From Pirellulaceae bacterium (GTDB taxonomy: Bacteria; Planctomycetota; Planctomycetia; Pirellulales; Pirellulaceae): a stretch of 64,000 bases of DNA. The position numbers and the translations under genes were made by a program. Location: contig JAWKTK010000011.1 in assembly GCA_041399205.1 (NCBI GenBank), positions 122,448-186,447 of the forward strand, written 5' to 3'. The notes beneath the pieces were generated by a model, which ran no database searches, was not told where the DNA came from, and was given only the letters and a program-made list of their open reading frames with translations. Positions within the stretch are counted from its first letter, which is position 1. Every line of letters begins with the position of its first letter. Below, in pieces: positions 7,476 through 41,786 of this stretch.

Positions 7476-9038
7476 TTAGCGAATAGGTTGGTGCCATACT
7501 TTTCCGTAGATGCGAGACCGAGGAATCGTGCCGATGACCTTGGTACCTAACAATTGCGAAATATCTTCTTCGGAACGAACGGAATGATCTAACAAGTTTG
7601 CTAACAATCCCACAAACAATGGGATTCCCAATACCATCATGGATCCGCCCGCAATGAGCAGAAGCTTGGAAGGACTAACCGGCTTATGCCAAGATCGTGC
7701 CTGTTGAATGACGTTGATATTGGATACCAAGTCCTTTTGCAGTTGTTCCTGAATACGAGATTCTTCAAATTTGTTGTCATAGGTGAGAAAATCTTCTTTA
7801 GTGATTTGAACGTCACGCTCCAGCCCCGTGATTTCTCGTTCCGCTTGGTTTGCTTCGCGGATTTTGGCCAACAAATCGGCTTGTTGCTGCTTCAGCTTGT
7901 CCAGTCTGGCTTCTTGTCCTTGAGCGTTCGTTTCCATTTGTTCGAAACTCATCGCCAGTTGTTCATAGATGGGATTCGAATCACTGGTGGTTTCTGTTCG
8001 CCGAGCTGATTCTTGTGCAAGTTGTCGTTCCGCTTGTTGCACCGCCTCACGAGCTCGCTGCAAACGAGGATCCGATTCCTGTAACTTGGTTTCCAGTTCC
8101 ACCAGTTGTAGCTGAGCGGTATACAGCTGCTGTTGAAGAAGATCTAAGCCCGCGTTGGCGACGTCCACCTCTTCTGTCATCTTGCGTTCCGGAATCACTG
8201 ACAGTTTCTGCTTAATGGCGTCGGCCGATCCTCGGTACATGGCCAATTCACGTTCGGCCAAGAAGACGTCGTTTTCCACGGTCAGTAATTCTGTTTCCAA
8301 TTTGCTGCGATGGCCGCCGATGGACGCAAAGCCCAGTTCGGACTTGCGAGCTTCCAGTTGTTGTTCTAACGCCGTCAGTTTTTCATGCGAAGCGTCACGT
8401 TGAACCTCAAAAAAGTCTTTCGAACCATCATTGCGAAACGCCTTCACATGTTCTCGCTGGTATGCCTTGACCAGTTCGCTGACAATCGCTCGAGCCAATT
8501 CGGGCGAATCAGCAACCTGCTTGATATAGATCACGGACGAGTCTCGTTCCACCTCCACGTCCAAGGTTTCTTCCAATTCGCGAATCGCCTTTTCTCGCTC
8601 CGGAACCGGGTCAATATTGGATAGCGTGGACAAGACCGGAGCCACAACCGACGCCACCCAATCCTTTACGGCGGATTCGCGAACCGGTCCATTGTCATTC
8701 TCCAAAGGCACATCACCTAACACGACGCCGGGTGTAAGCGAATCGACAATCGCGCCCATCACTGACCGACTTAACAAGGTGTCCAGCGCCGACTTGATCT
8801 CTGAATCTCGGTTCAACTGCGCCAGTCCAATCGTCGGACCCGTCGTGGCCGTAGGGTCGATACCGATACTTTCACGTCCAATTTGCAAAAACAACTTGGC
8901 GTCGGCGTAATATTTTCGAGGCCAAAACAGAATGGCCAAAACCGTAACAGCAATCACCAGCAACTGCAGGAAAACGATCTTTCCTTTGTGCCGAAACATG
9001 GACGCCATAATGTCTGCAGGGCGGAGCGAATGGTTCAT
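7476..9038 (-). CDS. Wzz/GumC-like polysaccharide chain-length determinant protein
   Basis: 520 aa. N-terminal TM helix, long coiled-coil periplasmic region, C-terminal TM helix (LLLIAGGSMMVLGIPLFVGLLANLL). Adjacent to the P-loop partner. Confidence 0.7.
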   Translation of the reverse strand: MNHSLRPADIMASMFRHKGKIVFLQLLVIAVTVLAILFWPRKYYADAKLFLQIGRESIGIDPTATTGPTIGLAQLNRDSEIKSALDTLLSRSVMGAIVDSLTPGVVLGDVPLENDNGPVRESAVKDWVASVVAPVLSTLSNIDPVPEREKAIRELEETLDVEVERDSSVIYIKQVADSPELARAIVSELVKAYQREHVKAFRNDGSKDFFEVQRDASHEKLTALEQQLEARKSELGFASIGGHRSKLETELLTVENDVFLAERELAMYRGSADAIKQKLSVIPERKMTEEVDVANAGLDLLQQQLYTAQLQLVELETKLQESDPRLQRAREAVQQAERQLAQESARRTETTSDSNPIYEQLAMSFEQMETNAQGQEARLDKLKQQQADLLAKIREANQAEREITGLERDVQITKEDFLTYDNKFEESRIQEQLQKDLVSNINVIQQARSWHKPVSPSKLLLIAGGSMMVLGIPLFVGLLANLLDHSVRSEEDISQLLGTKVIGTIPRSRIYGKVWHQPIR

Positions 9039-9308
9039 CAGAGGTATTCATCACGAAGCTAAGGGATTCAAAAGAAAGCAAGCTCGGAATCCATTCGCCA
9101 TGTGCCAACCAACACGAAGCTGACACCTGTTCCAGCGCATTTGGTGAACATGCGGACAACCAAACGCAAACAGAAGTTAAGCTATCAGCATAAAATCACG
9201 TGTCAGCCGTGACAAGCGACCGTCTGCTTCCAACAAGCCACACCTGCCTGAAATCGGCAGATTCTGTCGATTATTAGGACTAGACGGCGGCGCCCGCCCG
9301 ATGGCACC

Positions 9309-10341
9309 TCACTTGGGCAACGCTCCGGTATCGCGGTACCAGGCCACCAGATCGTTCAGTCGAAGCTGTAACCGCTTTGTACAAGAAAATCCTAGTTCGG
9401 ACCGAATTCGCTGGCTGGAGCAAGCCCACGGACCGTTTTGGGCTTCTCTAGCCTTGTCCCAGTTGAAAATATGAGGCCTACGTCGAATTCGCCCCCACGC
9501 TTCATTGACCGATGCGGTGGTGTTAATTAGCCAACGAGATGCTTGGACGGTTCGAACCGTTCGCTTCTCTAATGCTTTGGCCAGCATGTCTCCCAGCTCC
9601 GCGAAACTAGGCGTCTGTTCGGCTGCCACAAAATAGACACCTCGGCTATCGGCGCCGCTGGCAAACTCACAATTCAACGTTTGCCCTTGTTCCGCCACCA
9701 ATTTCAATGCCACGGCAACATCCTCGGCCGCGATTAACGAAATCGGTTGGCTATGTGTCAGCGGAGCCAGATGGACGCCGAATTGACTAATCGGCTTCAC
9801 CATCTCGAGGAACTCGGTGTCATGCGGTCCAAAAACAATGGGAGGTCGCACAATAGATATGGGCATGTGCTGGGCGAACCGAGCTGCTTCCAGTTCTGCG
9901 CGGCGTTTGCTGGCGCCGTAGCGTGAAACTGGCGAAACCGGATCTTCTTCTCTTCGAAGACGACCGGTCAGCGCTGGCCCCGCAGCCGCCAGCGACGACA
10001 CGACAATCAGCTTGGGCGGCGTCGATTGCGGCACACACCTTTGCCAATGTTGCTGTGCCTTGCGAATTGGTACGAAACAAATCGGAGGCACGAAACGCCT
10101 TGGTCAGTCCGGCCAGATGGTAGACCACATCTATTGGTCCCACGGCAGTTCGCAAACTCGATTCATCATTCAGGTCACCATGAACGAATCGAACTTGCCA
10201 AGATGTGAGGCGGTCCACGCGAGACGATGCTCGCACAAGACATGTGACATCCTCGCCCGCCCGCGCCAAATGCGCAACGACATGTGCTCCCAAGAAGCCA
10301 GAAGCTCCCGTAACCAGAACGCGACTCATTACGACGACCAA
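9309..10341 (-). pseudogene. NAD-dependent epimerase/dehydratase interrupted by a frameshift near 10020-10030
   Basis: Two overlapping minus-strand ORFs in different frames. 9820..10341 has the N-terminal Rossmann motif MSRVLVTGASGFLGAHVV. 9309..10091 has the YGASKRRAE (YxxxK) catalytic motif and the C-terminal part. Reading continuity switches between ...KVCAAIDAAQ and PKLIVVSS. Confidence 0.7.
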
Positions 10342-36543: not shown

Positions 36544-37284
36544 TCAGCTGTCTCGTTGACGGCAAAAGGCCAAAATGTCCGCCACATTAGTAGGTAAATC
36601 GCCAGCCGGTTCTGGTTTTGATTCTTGGGCTGGAGGATCTGCGGCAGCAGGAGCGTCCGCAACGGGCTCGGGCTTGGCTGCGGGTGCTGCCGAGCCACCA
36701 CGAGCTGCTGCCAGGATATCGTCCACAGACATCGACTTGGAATCCGCAGCGGCAGGTTTGGGCGCCGCTGGTTTCTCGTTGGCCGGCGCCGATCCACCTC
36801 GAGCGGCCGCCAGGATGTCCGCCGCGCTCATTCCGGCTGGTTTTGCAGCGGCAGGTTTCGGTGCCGATGCGCCGCCTCGAGCGGCCGCCAGTATATCTGC
36901 TGGCGACATTCCACCGCCGCTTGCGGCCGGCTTCTTCGCCGGAGCGGCTGGCTTTGGAGCCGCTTTGGCTGCGGGCTTCTCCGGAGCTTCGACCGGTTTG
37001 TCCACGACTTTGAGGAAATCAACATCGATATCAAACCAGCCAATGTTGTTGGCAGAATTCAAAAATTCCACCAACGCGCGGCCGTTCATGTTGACCGTTT
37101 TCACGACGCCCGTAAGGTTGCGAAATCGACGCAATTCGGCGAGCGAAGCATCTACGATCACGTATTTGTCGGTGTATTCGCTCTTGAGCTTTTCGATATT
37201 TTCAAACACCATCGACGTGTTTACTCCCGAATTGTTGAATTCAAACCAAGCCAGCCTGATTAGATTTTCTTCGAATTTCTCCAC
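36544..37284 (-). CDS. Hypothetical protein with three MS(P/A)ADILAAARGG repeats in an Ala/Pro/Lys-rich region
   Basis: 246 aa. Globular N-terminal domain of about 95 aa, then PAAKAAPKPAAPAKKPAASGGGMSPADILAAARGGASAPKPAAAKPAGMSAADILAAARGGSAPANEKPAAPKPAAADSKSMSVDDILAAARGGSAAP. Confidence 0.6.
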   Translation of the reverse strand: MEKFEENLIRLAWFEFNNSGVNTSMVFENIEKLKSEYTDKYVIVDASLAELRRFRNLTGVVKTVNMNGRALVEFLNSANNIGWFDIDVDFLKVVDKPVEAPEKPAAKAAPKPAAPAKKPAASGGGMSPADILAAARGGASAPKPAAAKPAGMSAADILAAARGGSAPANEKPAAPKPAAADSKSMSVDDILAAARGGSAAPAAKPEPVADAPAAADPPAQESKPEPAGDLPTNVADILAFCRQRDS

Positions 37285-37319: not shown

Positions 37320-37865
37320 CTATTTTGTCGTTTTCTTGGCCGCCGTTTTCCGAAGAACTTCGTATTTCCAACGAACCGTCACGGGAAAAGTCGCGTCCGC
37401 CGCCAAAACGGTGGTAATCTGGGCCAATTGATCCCCTACATTTCCATCCGAGCCGAGGCCCTGGCAGTGCAGGTCCAGGTGCCGTCCCGTGTCCATAGAC
37501 CCCAGACGATAGGTAGAACCTAGGAAATTCGGGGCGTCCTTCATGCGGCAGGCCACATCAAAGACCAGACGGCCCGAATCCGCGGAAACGGCCAGAGACC
37601 AGTGGCTGGCACCGGCCATTCCGACGGCAAACAGACACCGATTCCCAGGCGCAATTTCCTGGAAATGAATCTGTTGCAACGGCGGACTTAGTGGCCAGAG
37701 GTCTTGGCTGTCTCCATCCACAGAGCCCCATTCATCCATGATCTGACCATCTTGCAACGCCACCACCTGATGGACGTATCGGTCTTGTTGCCAGTGGAAC
37801 CTGACGGAGATACCGCTATTCGCTGTATCAACGTTGTCCAGCTGGAATGATTCGGGATTAGACAT
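37320..37865 (-). CDS. Hypothetical protein
   Basis: 181-aa ORF with no recognisable motifs. Stands between prfB and the repeat protein. Confidence 0.4.
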   Translation of the reverse strand: MSNPESFQLDNVDTANSGISVRFHWQQDRYVHQVVALQDGQIMDEWGSVDGDSQDLWPLSPPLQQIHFQEIAPGNRCLFAVGMAGASHWSLAVSADSGRLVFDVACRMKDAPNFLGSTYRLGSMDTGRHLDLHCQGLGSDGNVGDQLAQITTVLAADATFPVTVRWKYEVLRKTAAKKTTK

Positions 37866-37886: not shown

Positions 37887-38970
37887 CTAGTCTGTCTTGA
37901 CTCGCCACTTCAAATACGATTCCAGAAAACCATCGATGTCGCCATCCATGACTTGATGAAAATTGCCCACAGAATAGCCGGTACGACTATCTTTTACTCG
38001 CTGATCTGGATGCAAGAAGTAGTTGCGAATTTGCGAACCGAACCCGACCTTGGCTTGATCTTTGTACTTCTGAGCTTGTTGGGATTCTCGCTTTTCTTCT
38101 TCGATTCTTGCCAAACGAGCACGAAGCATCTTCCACGCCGACGCTCGATTTTTATGTTGACTCCGTTCGTTTTGACACTGCACGACGATCCCGGTAGGCA
38201 TGTGTGTTAGTCGAATGGCGCTATCGGTCTTGTTCACGTGCTGACCGCCGGCACCACTGGCGCGAAACGTGTCTTCGCGAACATCAGACTCTTTCACGTC
38301 CACGTCGACGCTGTCCGAGATTTCGGGCGCCACGTCCACTGCGGCAAAACTGGTTTGGCGTTTTCCTTCCGAATTGAACGGACTGATTCGCACCAAACGA
38401 TGCACGCCCGTTTCGCCCTTCAAATATCCGTAGGCCATTGGCCCGCGAATGGCGATCGTGGCGCTATTGATCCCCGCTTCATCGTTGTCTTGACGATCCA
38501 GTATTTCCACGTTGCAGTCATGGTTTTGAGCCCAATGAGAATACATTCGCAGCAGCATTTCCGCCCAATCATTGGCGTCCGTTCCGCCGTCTCGTGCGTT
38601 GATCGTCAGAATGGCGCCTAAGTGATCATGTGCGCCACACAGCAGCGTACTTAACTGCAACCGTTCTAGTTCGGTTTCCAGTTGCTCAATTTCCGCTTGG
38701 GCTTCTTGTGCAAACGAAGCGTCTTCTTCGGCCATTTCGATCATGGCGTCCAGGTCTTCCAGACGAGCGGACACTTCGTTTAACGGCTTCAGCATGGTTC
38801 GCAAAGACTTGAGTTGCGTCACCTTTTCTTGAGCCGCGTCTTGTTTTTCCCAGAATCCGGGCGCTGCCATTTCCGCTTCAATCACGGCGATTTGCTTGGT
38901 CTTGGCATCGTAGTCAAAGACTGTCTCGTAGCTGAACAAGTTCGTCACGAATCACGTCCGCTCGGTTCAT
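37887..38970 (-). CDS. prfB: Peptide chain release factor 2, containing the programmed +1 frameshift
   Basis: Frame-0 start ATG at 38968-38970 encodes MNRADVIRDELVQLRDSL and ends at CTT TGA C (38914-38920). The +1 frame continues DYDAKTKQIAV...SPF...GGQHVNKTDSAIRLTHMPTGIVVQCQNERSQHKNR (GGQ and SPF motifs). Confidence 0.9.
38914..38920 (-). other. prfB: prfB programmed +1 ribosomal frameshift site CUU UGA C
   Basis: Plus-strand GTCAAAG equals minus-strand CTT TGA C, located at the point where the RF2 reading frame switches. Confidence 0.85.
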
Positions 38971-39200
38971 TAGATCGCGGTCCATCCCATTTGACTCCGG
39001 ATTTCATTGTGTGAAAACGCCAGCGACCAGTGTAGTCGCATTCGAAAGAACGGGAAACGGGACTATTCTTTTACGCGTCTCCAATGCCTCTGTGGCAGCA
39101 GCAGAATCCGTACTCGCGGAGCGTTTTGGTCAGCGCAATAACAAAGGCCCGATGAATTCATCGGGCCTTTGAAGATCGATTCGCTAATTAGCGAAGAACG

Positions 39201-41558
39201 TTAGTTGCAAGAGCTGCAACCGCCGCATCCGCCTGCGTTTCCAGCACCACCGCAACCGGCAGCACCTGCACCGTATCCAGCTCCAACGCCAGAACCGTAA
39301 ACCGGAACCGTAACGGTGGAAGGAACAGTGACGCACTTACGAACTTGAACTGGCTTCTGAACGGTTACAGGAACGCAAACCGTGTAAGATTCAGTGGTTT
39401 CGTAAGGAACCGTCGTGTAAGACGTTACATTGTCAACCTTGGTGCGAACTTGCGGAACCATTACCGTGTAAGGAACTTCTCGTGTACGAGTTTCCGTGTG
39501 GTAATCGGTTACGTTGTAAGTTTGCTGACGAGTTTCCGTGCGAACTTGTTGAACCTTTTCAGTTCGAGTTCGCGTTTGGTTTTCGTAGCTGCAAACTTTG
39601 ACCATTCGCGTGCGAGTTTCAGGTTGGTATTCAGTAACTTGGCGAGTACGAGTTCGTTGTTCGGTAACGAATTCCGTAACTTGCTCGGTACGAGTACGAG
39701 TCTGAGTTTCGCAGCTGGTCACGTTGACCATACGAGTTCGTTGTTGGTTAACCATACGAGTTACCGGAACGGTGCGAGATCGCTGTTCGGTCTGCATGGT
39801 GGTTACAGGAACCGTTCGAGTTCGCGTTTCCGTTCGATACGTGGTGTAAGGAACGGTGCGAGTCTTTTGTTCTTGAACCATGCGAGTTACGGGAACAGAT
39901 CGAGTTCGCGTTTCGGTTCGCATCGTGGTTACGGGAACAGATCGAGTTCGCGTTTCCGTTCGGAACGTAGTGTAAGGAACGGTGCGAGTCTTCTGTTCTT
40001 GAACCATACGAGTTACCGGAACGGTGCGAGTTCGTGTTTCTGTGTTGTAAGTCGTCACAGGAACCGTTCGAGTTCGCGTTTCAGCATGGTTGACCGTTAC
40101 ATTATAGGTGTAAGGAACCGATTCTAGCTGACGTTCGTAGGTGGTGTAAGGAACCTGTTCTGTGACAGGATTCGACACCCATACTCGTTTGGTAACCGTG
40201 CATGCAGTTCCGACGATTTGTTCGCCACCCATGCCGCCAGCGTAACCGCCGTCAACATAAGCACCGCTTCCACCGCACGCGGAACCAGCCGCAGCAGAAC
40301 CACCACAGCCACAAGCATTGGAGCAAGGAGCACAGTCGCCGCAACCACCGCAGCCACCGCCGCAAGAGCTGACAACAACCGAACCACAGCCACCACAACC
40401 AGCAGCAGCACCCACACCTGCTCCGGCACCGTAAACAGCACCACCAGCACCGTAGCCACCACCAACCGGTTCAACTCGCGTTTCCCAGTGACCTTGGTCA
40501 CGGCAAACCGAGCGATACTTGGTGACGGGAACCATACGGCAAACCGTTCGAGAGGCCGAACGCTGTTCCGTATGAGGAACCATAACCGTGTACGATTCTT
40601 CTCGTTGCGAAGTTACCGGAACCTGAACCGTGTAAGATTCTTCTCGGTTTTCCGTTACAGGAACACAAACCGTGTAAGATTCTTCACGAGTTTCCTGAAC
40701 GGGAACTTGAACCGTGTAAGATTCTTCACGAGTTTCCGTTACAGGAACCTGAACCGTGTAGGATTCTTCGCGGTTTTCCGTTACGGGAACGGTAACCGTG
40801 TAAGTTTCTTCCCGAGTTTCTTGAACTGGGACCTGAACGGTGTAGGTTTCTTCACGCTGAGTCGTAACCGGAACTTGAACCGTATAGGTTTCTTCGCGGT
40901 TTTCCGTTACCGGAACACAAACCGTGTAGGTCTGTTCAACTTGGCGAGTCACAGGAACCTGAACTTGGTAAGTTCGTTCAACCGACTTGGTTCGAGGCAC
41001 CGAAACCGTGTAGTTTTCTACTACTTCACGGGTTACAGGTACGTTGACCGTGTACTGCTGAGGAACTTCCTTCCAGACGGGAACGCGTACTGTGTATTCC
41101 CGAGTGACGTCCGTCCAATATGGAACTTGAACGGTGTAGTCTCGCGTTTCAGTGCGAGTAACTGGTACATTCACGGTGTAATTTTCCGTTCGTGTACGTT
41201 GTTCCGGAACCATGACTGTGTATTCACGAGTCACTTGGCGGGTTTCTGGAACTTGACGATAACGCGTCACCGTTCGTTGACGGGTCTGACGCTGATACTG
41301 GGTTACATTCACCATTTGTGTTTCCGTAACCCACTGCGGTACCATTACTGTACGTTGAACGTAAGCAGGACCGCAATTAACGGCAGGTGCTGACAAATCT
41401 GCTCCGGATACATATGCACCAGAAACATCACCACCACCAACGACAGAACCACCACAATCGGTGGATGCGCCGCAACCACAACCGCAATCCGCACGCAACG
41501 AGCCAACAAGGCCCAGGGCGGCGGTCATGGTCAATGCTAACCAAGAACGATTAAGCAT
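39201..41558 (-). CDS. Secreted, highly repetitive Cys/Gly-rich protein with 14-residue tandem repeats
   Basis: 785 aa with signal peptide MLNRSWLALTMTAALGLVGSLRA. Cys/Gly-rich segments at the N-terminus, centre (about 80 aa) and C-terminus. Block A has about 15 repeats of E[ST]YTVQVPVTETRE. Block B has about 12 repeats of TETRTRTVPVT[TR]M. The underlying DNA repeats are about 42 bp. Confidence 0.75.
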   Translation of the reverse strand: MLNRSWLALTMTAALGLVGSLRADCGCGCGASTDCGGSVVGGGDVSGAYVSGADLSAPAVNCGPAYVQRTVMVPQWVTETQMVNVTQYQRQTRQRTVTRYRQVPETRQVTREYTVMVPEQRTRTENYTVNVPVTRTETRDYTVQVPYWTDVTREYTVRVPVWKEVPQQYTVNVPVTREVVENYTVSVPRTKSVERTYQVQVPVTRQVEQTYTVCVPVTENREETYTVQVPVTTQREETYTVQVPVQETREETYTVTVPVTENREESYTVQVPVTETREESYTVQVPVQETREESYTVCVPVTENREESYTVQVPVTSQREESYTVMVPHTEQRSASRTVCRMVPVTKYRSVCRDQGHWETRVEPVGGGYGAGGAVYGAGAGVGAAAGCGGCGSVVVSSCGGGCGGCGDCAPCSNACGCGGSAAAGSACGGSGAYVDGGYAGGMGGEQIVGTACTVTKRVWVSNPVTEQVPYTTYERQLESVPYTYNVTVNHAETRTRTVPVTTYNTETRTRTVPVTRMVQEQKTRTVPYTTFRTETRTRSVPVTTMRTETRTRSVPVTRMVQEQKTRTVPYTTYRTETRTRTVPVTTMQTEQRSRTVPVTRMVNQQRTRMVNVTSCETQTRTRTEQVTEFVTEQRTRTRQVTEYQPETRTRMVKVCSYENQTRTRTEKVQQVRTETRQQTYNVTDYHTETRTREVPYTVMVPQVRTKVDNVTSYTTVPYETTESYTVCVPVTVQKPVQVRKCVTVPSTVTVPVYGSGVGAGYGAGAAGCGGAGNAGGCGGCSSCN

Positions 41559-41786
41559 TTTTCCTAGACTCTCCTTTCTCGTAGAGCTGCTAGATGTACA
41601 AAAACCTCGCTGACTTTTACGGTCAGTTAAAATGCCGTGCAGGCACGGACTAGGTAATATAAGTTGCCACTAACACTGTGCAAGTGACATTTGGCAACAT
41701 GTCGAATTTTTGGTACCTAATTGCACTTCTTTTGCAAGAGTTGGGCCATCCTAATTGTTAGAAGCCGAAAGAATTTCAGGTCAGCA

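Follow-up and report, generated by a model that had tools for sequence, protein, structure and literature searches.

The stretch of DNA analysed here (the window) comprises 64,000 nucleotides from a Pirellulaceae bacterium (GenBank assembly GCA_041399205.1, contig JAWKTK010000011.1, positions 122,448 to 186,447 of the forward strand). On its reverse strand lies an intact gene for a 785-aa protein, which is a member of the YTV family of Cys-rich planctomycete cell-wall proteins. We propose, with a probability of roughly 0.78, that the product is an exported structural protein of the envelope that would fold as an in-register, two-stranded hairpin rod, linked by disulfides at its ends. The gene and its parts are listed below in 5′ to 3′ order of the coding strand (AF2, AlphaFold2; pLDDT, predicted local distance difference test score).

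41571..41576, minus strand: AAGGAG Shine-Dalgarno-like motif, 12 nt 5′ of the ATG (direct reading of the sequence)
39201..41558, minus strand: complete coding sequence of the 785-aa YTV-family protein (ATG start; TAA stop at 39201-39203; list of open reading frames)
41490..41558, minus strand: putative Sec signal peptide, aa 1-23 (MLNRSWLALTMTAALGLVGSLRA/D; read from the sequence, with an AF2 helix at aa 5-13 and hydrophobic N-termini in homologs)
41367..41489, minus strand: N-terminal Cys/Gly segment, aa 24-64 (Cys 25, 27, 29, 35, 62; low pLDDT, no secondary structure)
40464..41366, minus strand: arm 1, aa 65-365 (YTV 14-aa repeats; ends in the conserved CRDQGHWE clamp, W358)
40551..40928, minus strand: expanded, near-homogeneous part of arm 1, aa 211-336 (9 x 14 aa = 3 x 42 aa; net charge -14)
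40203..40463, minus strand: central Cys/Gly segment, aa 366-452 (12 Cys at 388-428; low pLDDT, no secondary structure; predicted hairpin-tip loop)
39300..40202, minus strand: arm 2, aa 453-753 (starts with the invariant VWV, W460; basic ETRTR/TVPVT 14-aa repeats)
39738..40115, minus strand: expanded part of arm 2, aa 482-607 (9 x 14 aa; net charge +15; partner of aa 211-336)
39204..39299, minus strand: C-terminal Gly/Cys tail, aa 754-785 (Cys 769, 778, 781, 784; unstructured in AF2)
39134..39171, minus strand: intrinsic terminator about 30 nt past the stop codon (13-bp stem and 4-nt loop at 39142-39171, then UUUGUUAUU)

The open reading frame (ORF) with its ATG start is as reported in a first-pass annotation, made by a model from the sequence alone, and the three segments rich in Cys/Gly and the pair of 14-aa repeat blocks described there are all present. 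Threonine and valine account for 17% of residues each (34% together), followed by R (9%), G (8%), E (8%) and C (3.6%). Twenty of the 28 Cys fall in three Cys/Gly-rich clusters (aa 25-62, 388-428 (+453) and 769-784), and the strings CGCGCG, GCGGCG and GCGDCAPC are all found. Block 1 holds 16 Y[TQ]V motifs at an exact 14-aa spacing (aa 113-323). Block 2 holds 8 strict VP[VY] motifs at the same spacing (aa 499-597) and runs on as degenerate TRTR units to about aa 690, after which arm 2 closes with two YTV-like units and a C..VP motif (C742-P746). By eye the N-terminus has the n-h-c layout of a signal peptide: MLNR, a hydrophobic stretch, then LRA/D. The Cys/Gly segment that follows it is common across the YTV family and variable in length; the Cys-rich C-terminus is likewise kept in alignments of the family.

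The first-pass annotation recognised no characterised domain. A comparison with Pfam overturns this: the protein matches YTV (PF07639) with E=3.7e-54 and 181 bits against a gathering cutoff of 21, in 9 stretches. Block 1 alone gives 72 + 203 bits; block 2 and the C-terminal part stay under the threshold (E=0.51 and 0.045). No NCBIfam model matches the protein, and its exact sequence had no match in the indexed protein collection. Homologs numbered 208 in a word-indexed search and 972 in an exhaustive search of a representative library, 439 of the latter with E<=1e-10. All named ones come from Pirellulaceae, Pirellulales, Planctomycetaceae or Fuerstiella, which fits the published confinement of YTV proteins to the class Planctomycetia (PMC10632474, PMC12673574). 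Alignments show the entire architecture to be collinear with that of Pirellulaceae and Planctomycetaceae relatives, with the Cys-rich segments flanking the repeats in the same layout. The order common to the family is signal peptide, Cys-rich N-terminal segment, TVMVPxxxTE, YTV block, DxGHWE, Cys/Gly centre, VWVxN, ETRTR block, C..VP and Cys-rich tail.

YTV proteins are major components of walls boiled in sodium dodecyl sulphate (SDS) from R. baltica (Hieu et al. 2008, as cited in PMC8567305), G. obscuriglobus (PMC5287468) and T. immobilis (PMC8567305); in planctomycete wall proteomes the family has been recognised since 2008. In Planctopirus limnophila, one YTV protein counts among the essential genes specific to planctomycetes (PMC10632474), and a 2021 survey placed PF07639 among the repeat families without known structure (PMC8078820). 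No fold is described in the papers of 2021-2025 consulted that mention YTV, and targeted text searches turned up none linking YTV to a hairpin. The first-pass annotation had offered the protein as a candidate novel structural protein; the structural part of this stands, and the novelty gives way to membership of a known family. Its broader picture of an exported, beta-rich protein open to Cys cross-linking, most plausibly structural and of the envelope, appears right. There is no second YTV gene in the 64-kb window. Ten homologs (P0003, P0009, P0016, P0022, P0047, P0064, P0079, P0081, P0087 and P0091) carry the NCBI product name 'ferredoxin', which looks like a propagated annotation artefact of the Cys-rich segments, PF07639 being the only family matched.

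AF2 models were obtained for the 785-aa protein and for a typical short relative (P0044, 437 aa). Both are a single two-stranded antiparallel hairpin in which block 1 lies against block 2, with the central Cys/Gly segment at the tip and the two termini side by side at the opposite end. In the less repetitive parts of the 785-aa protein pLDDT is 70-88. Its strands are assigned to aa 65-188, 191-204, 258-283, 321-354 and 357-365 in arm 1 and to aa 453-461, 464-497, 509-534, 558-571, 622-627 and 630-753 in arm 2, with boundaries that mirror each other (65/753, 188/630, 321/497, 354/464, 357/461, 365/453) at a constant sum i+j=818, the same register as that derived from sequence anchors. In P0044, where the arms reach pLDDT 85-91, strands 43-205 and 208-216 are mirrored by 251-259 and 262-424 (i+j=467). 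According to DSSP, strands of 124-163 residues run unbroken in the two models, without a turn per repeat. Searched by sequence, the PDB yielded no solved homolog at E<0.4 and a single match, at E=0.43, attributable to chance. Foldseek, a check that the first-pass annotation had proposed, likewise found no significant structural match in the PDB, with nothing under E=0.25; the top insignificant matches, the long hairpin stems of the lysenin, anthrax PA and CDTb pores, are informative on shape only.

Arm lengths were measured between four anchors located with position-specific scoring matrices (TVMVPxxxTE, DxGHWE, VWVxN and C..VP, here A to D), all of which score well in the 785-aa protein and in 175 well-anchored relatives; the A-to-B distance was taken as arm 1 and the C-to-D distance as arm 2. 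The two lengths are equal in 169 of the 175 relatives. They fall into twelve classes (99, 113, 127, 141, 143, 153, 155, 169, 181, 183, 253 and 281) that follow 99+14k, a few being shifted by 2. With 281/281, the 785-aa protein and its close twin described below have the longest arms found, nine additional 14-aa units per arm over the family mode of 153. The central loop varies between 38 and 170 aa among homologs, uncorrelated with the length of the arms (r=-0.02). Among the exceptions to equality are L010 (3301-4752) with 153/97, P0152 with 127/153, P0224 with 99/41 and P0022 with 154/153; the first of these comes from a contig of 3.6x coverage. Such unequal members could be collapsed repeats, fragments or genuine intermediates of one-arm expansion.

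In the DNA, Tandem Repeats Finder detects arrays of 42/84/126 bp under both blocks, at 40575-40938 for block 1 and at 39750-40082 for block 2. Their scores of up to 473 are far past chance and bear out the roughly 42-bp repeats noted in the first-pass annotation. The nine additional 14-aa units of each arm were gained by way of 126-bp super-repeats. The 126-bp array has 2.8 copies with 81% matches in block 1 and 2.6 copies with 81% matches in block 2. The similar copy number and divergence of these two super-repeats point to coordinated expansion and to selection for equal arms.

Coevolution between the arms was measured as mutual information with average product correction (APC), averaged per anti-diagonal, in the 102 ungapped members of the 153-residue class (effective number 58). 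It peaks on the anti-diagonal predicted from the model of the 785-aa protein (z=7.6), with the diagonals at +/-2 reaching z~5 and all others staying below 2. Thirty of the top 100 inter-arm pairs lie on the predicted diagonal and its two +/-2 neighbours, against 1.8 expected, and are spread over the full arm. The covarying pairs include charge swaps (RE/KE/ER/DR) and R-V/V-R swaps. Thus, arm 1 and arm 2 pair in antiparallel fashion and in the register of the models.

Charges and prolines agree with this register. Across the family, opposite-charge and like-charge cross-strand pairs stand at 1530:223 at the predicted register and at 1563:147 at offset +2; the ratio is intermediate at -1 and +1 and mostly about 1:1 at the remaining offsets. 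A charge-pair scan of the 785-aa protein alone was not decisive, whereas this family-wide version was. All 3295 of the 3295 arm prolines in 169 proteins fall into one parity class under the predicted register. By established beta-sheet geometry, the non-hydrogen-bonded positions of a two-stranded antiparallel ribbon are the only ones that accommodate proline without loss of a hydrogen bond, and this parity class can be the non-hydrogen-bonded one. In the arms of the family, the proline face consists of 28% Thr and 12% Pro and holds 77% of the arm Cys, and the other face consists of 33% Val, 23% Arg+Lys and 14% Glu, with Val/Tyr mostly opposite a charged residue. By its residue make-up, the ribbon is predicted to be a solvent-exposed sheet without a core.

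Comparison with close relatives shows the gene to be under strong purifying selection and not decaying. The copy in the metagenome-assembled genome 'Planctomycetales bacterium HKST-UBA27' (L001) encodes a 98.7% identical protein (775/785 residues, one 1-aa indel), and the gene order FloA, MnmA, YTV, RF2 is common to both. Identity at the DNA level is 96.6% in the gene and 91-93% in the flanks. Eighty of the 2358 alignment columns of the gene differ, 65 changes being synonymous and 12 non-synonymous; by our arithmetic with a crude 1:3 site count, this gives dN/dS ~0.06. The pseudogene decay that the first-pass annotation had raised as a possible objection is therefore not seen. Its statement that the repeats are prone to length variation fares less well, as the number of repeats is equal in the two copies despite ~8% DNA divergence and the 14-aa steps are matched in both blocks; repeat length is thus constrained rather than free-running. 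In a more distant syntenic ortholog (L002) the gene is intact as well, with arms of 253/253, each 28 aa shorter and with the gaps at roughly mirrored positions. Over the compared aa 100-700, many arm Tyr or other residues are replaced by Cys in this ortholog (8016-10085), for example VTTYNTE versus VVTCKTE. The replacements suggest that the number of lateral cross-link sites may be tuned species by species.

In the structure that we favour, the protein would be exported through Sec, after which its arms would fold. Acidic arm 1 (aa 65-365) would lie antiparallel to basic arm 2 (aa 453-753), residue i opposite residue 818-i, the pair forming one two-stranded beta-ribbon without a hydrophobic core. 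One face of this ribbon, corresponding to the non-hydrogen-bonded pair positions, would present Thr, Pro, Gln and most Cys, and the opposite face a checkerboard of Val/Tyr and Arg/Lys/Glu with Glu-Arg salt bridges. The N- and C-terminal Cys clusters would come together at the open end of the rod and the central cluster would occupy its tip. At ~0.33 nm per residue, our arithmetic gives an extended rod of ~100 nm for the 301 residues of an arm of the 785-aa protein and ~57 nm for typical members. The Cys clusters and the scattered arm Cys would then form intermolecular disulfides, linking the rods into an SDS-resistant wall network. Extended to the family, the same reasoning would make YTV wall proteins single giant beta-hairpins, rods of ~35 to 100 nm with equal arms quantised in 14-residue steps and with disulfide nodes at their ends, a generalisation for which we see roughly even odds. 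Such a hairpin architecture may not have been described before.

Several observations count against this structure or narrow its support. The AF2 model of the 785-aa protein is weak overall (mean pLDDT 56; predicted template modelling score, pTM, 0.26), and its homogeneous expanded repeats (aa 204-320 and 499-627) have pLDDT <50, so that the case for pairing in these parts is made by equal arm lengths, parity and charge. As 107 of the 175 proteins belong to one length class, the independent length changes number about a dozen, not 175. AF2 and the coevolution analysis use overlapping alignments and are not fully independent, and coevolution is blind to whether pairing occurs within or between molecules. 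Finally, no Cys lies directly opposite another Cys across the arms. Cross-strand disulfide staples, with 0 direct Cys-Cys pairs, are ruled out on this count, and the same absence leaves the Cys available for intermolecular disulfides.

Pairing could instead take place between chains, arm 1 of one molecule joining arm 2 of its neighbour like a zipper, in domain-swapped dimers or daisy-chain polymers, in which case the beta-pairing itself would build the lattice. Equal arms, anti-diagonal coevolution, charge complementarity and proline parity fit such an arrangement equally well; a long, flexible central loop (38-170 aa) and the recovery of the family from insoluble wall fractions also speak for it. 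We nevertheless regard it as unlikely. In the AF2 monomer models a single chain closes the hairpin, the conserved W358/W460 clamp directly adjoins the loop, some relatives (L006 and L007) have just ~18-20 residues of Cys/Gly between the clamp Trp, which favours closure within the chain, and tethered partners are entropically favoured. A parallel stack in which each 14-aa repeat makes one rung of a beta-solenoid or functional amyloid, as put forward in the first-pass annotation, is very unlikely. It would account for the strict 14-aa periodicity, the alternating Y/V/V/V residues and the covariation at i->i+14 and i->i+28 inside the arms, a weak signal (z=2.0-2.6) that repeat homogenisation could also explain; however, the AF2 strands are continuous, without a strand-turn-strand rung per repeat, and the antiparallel inter-arm diagonal reaches z=7.6.

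Two further readings do without a paired rod. The dense Cys-Gly clusters, with CxCxC and CGGCG, might bind metal or an Fe-S centre while the repeats act only as spacers, as the product names of about ten homologs would imply. Yet neither Pfam (E<=1) nor NCBIfam returns a ferredoxin or Fe-S family for the protein, YTV being the only match. The N-terminus is of Sec type, neither the count of Cys in the clusters nor their spacing is conserved (the loop spanning 38-170 aa), the conserved and coevolving positions lie in the repeats rather than in the clusters, and published proteomics puts the family in the wall; all this makes a ferredoxin highly improbable. Lowest of all we rate a low-complexity, mostly disordered spacer or a decaying repeat gene without a defined fold. 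The biased composition, with a third of the residues being T or V, and the low mean pLDDT of the 785-aa protein speak for it. Against it, purifying selection is strong and the gene better conserved than its flanks, both strains and the ortholog carry an uninterrupted ORF, a terminator of its own follows the gene, and there are position-specific coevolution and an absolute proline parity rule.

The two-stranded hairpin rod can be set beside known systems. With the known YTV wall proteins the 785-aa protein shares the Pfam YTV repeats, the richness in Cys, the signal-peptide-like N-terminus and the class Planctomycetia; it differs in its arms of 281 residues between anchors, compared with the mode of 153, and in that its ETRTR block 2 lies outside the Pfam model, and its wall localisation is predicted. 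In chlamydiae, which belong to the same Planctomycetes-Verrucomicrobia-Chlamydiae (PVC) superphylum, envelope rigidity is attributed to the disulfide cross-linked Cys-rich proteins OmcA and OmcB. The likeness is one of functional analogy only, as Cys-rich envelope proteins: there is no sequence relation (Pfam finds YTV only), and OmcA/OmcB have neither 14-aa repeats nor a two-arm architecture. Borrelia OspA, with its single-layer sheet, and the G5-E rod of staphylococcal SasG/Aap are examples of elongated beta-sheet proteins that lack a hydrophobic core. The predicted YTV hairpin would resemble these as a thin, exposed beta-sheet held by beta-branched and long charged side chains and as a long surface rod. 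Curli/CsgA beta-solenoids are likewise secreted, repeat-built, beta-rich extracellular structural proteins; unlike them, the 785-aa protein shows no strand-turn-strand rungs in its AF2 model and only a weak covariation signal of the kind that parallel stacking would give, and it has no match to their family.

Planctomycete walls have long been described as proteinaceous, rich in Cys and Pro and resistant to boiling SDS, and the literature searched does not say how their signature protein folds. A concrete and testable model of such a wall is offered by a giant hairpin whose arms are matched and quantised; if true, this would be a way of building a bacterial cell wall that has not been described so far. 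Rod length should then scale with repeat number, reduction should dissolve the network, and one-arm deletions should be deleterious while matched deletions are tolerated. Such tests are within reach in the genetically tractable P. limnophila, in which a YTV protein is essential (PMC10632474). Two different repeat arrays that expand in concert within one gene are rare in nature, and the family provides such a case; since the name 'ferredoxin' is attached to many of its members, it is also a useful counter-example in the annotation of repeat proteins.

Putative expression signals lie on both sides of the gene. The terminator RNA folds with -23.9 kcal/mol (z=-5.5), and none of 200 shuffled sequences was equally stable. 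With its own Shine-Dalgarno-like motif and this strong terminator, the YTV gene looks like a self-contained transcription unit. A scan for consensus promoters and terminators gave nothing over the shuffle background and missed the real terminator of the gene. MnmA is transcribed divergently, and 160 nt separate the start of its gene from the YTV ATG. Within the 5′ leader of the YTV gene, at 41610-41648 (minus strand), there are two short terminator-like hairpins, a number not above that in shuffled sequence.

The neighbours are housekeeping genes: RF2 lies downstream, MnmA and FloA are divergent upstream, and an EEP-family protein and an arginyl-transferase are also encoded. They offer no functional link to the YTV gene, though gene order is conserved. 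In the RF2 gene prfB (37887-39000, minus strand), the site of programmed +1 frameshifting is present in its canonical form, CTT TGA C, at 38913-38919. Its frame-0 leader reads MDRDLMNRADVIRDELVQLRDSL, followed by the stop, and the joined product has 365 aa; the ORF list gives only the 353-aa downstream frame. Further on, a 246-aa Ala/Pro/Lys-rich protein (36544-37284, minus strand) has a conserved N-terminal domain, three M[SP]x[AV]DILAAARGG motifs and no Pfam match, and accompanies the YTV-RF2 locus in L001 (9910-10650) as well as in L002 (12255-13010). Between it and RF2 lies a 181-aa ORF (37320-37865, minus strand), also without a Pfam match, whose position is kept in L001 and L002 (L002 11549-12184).

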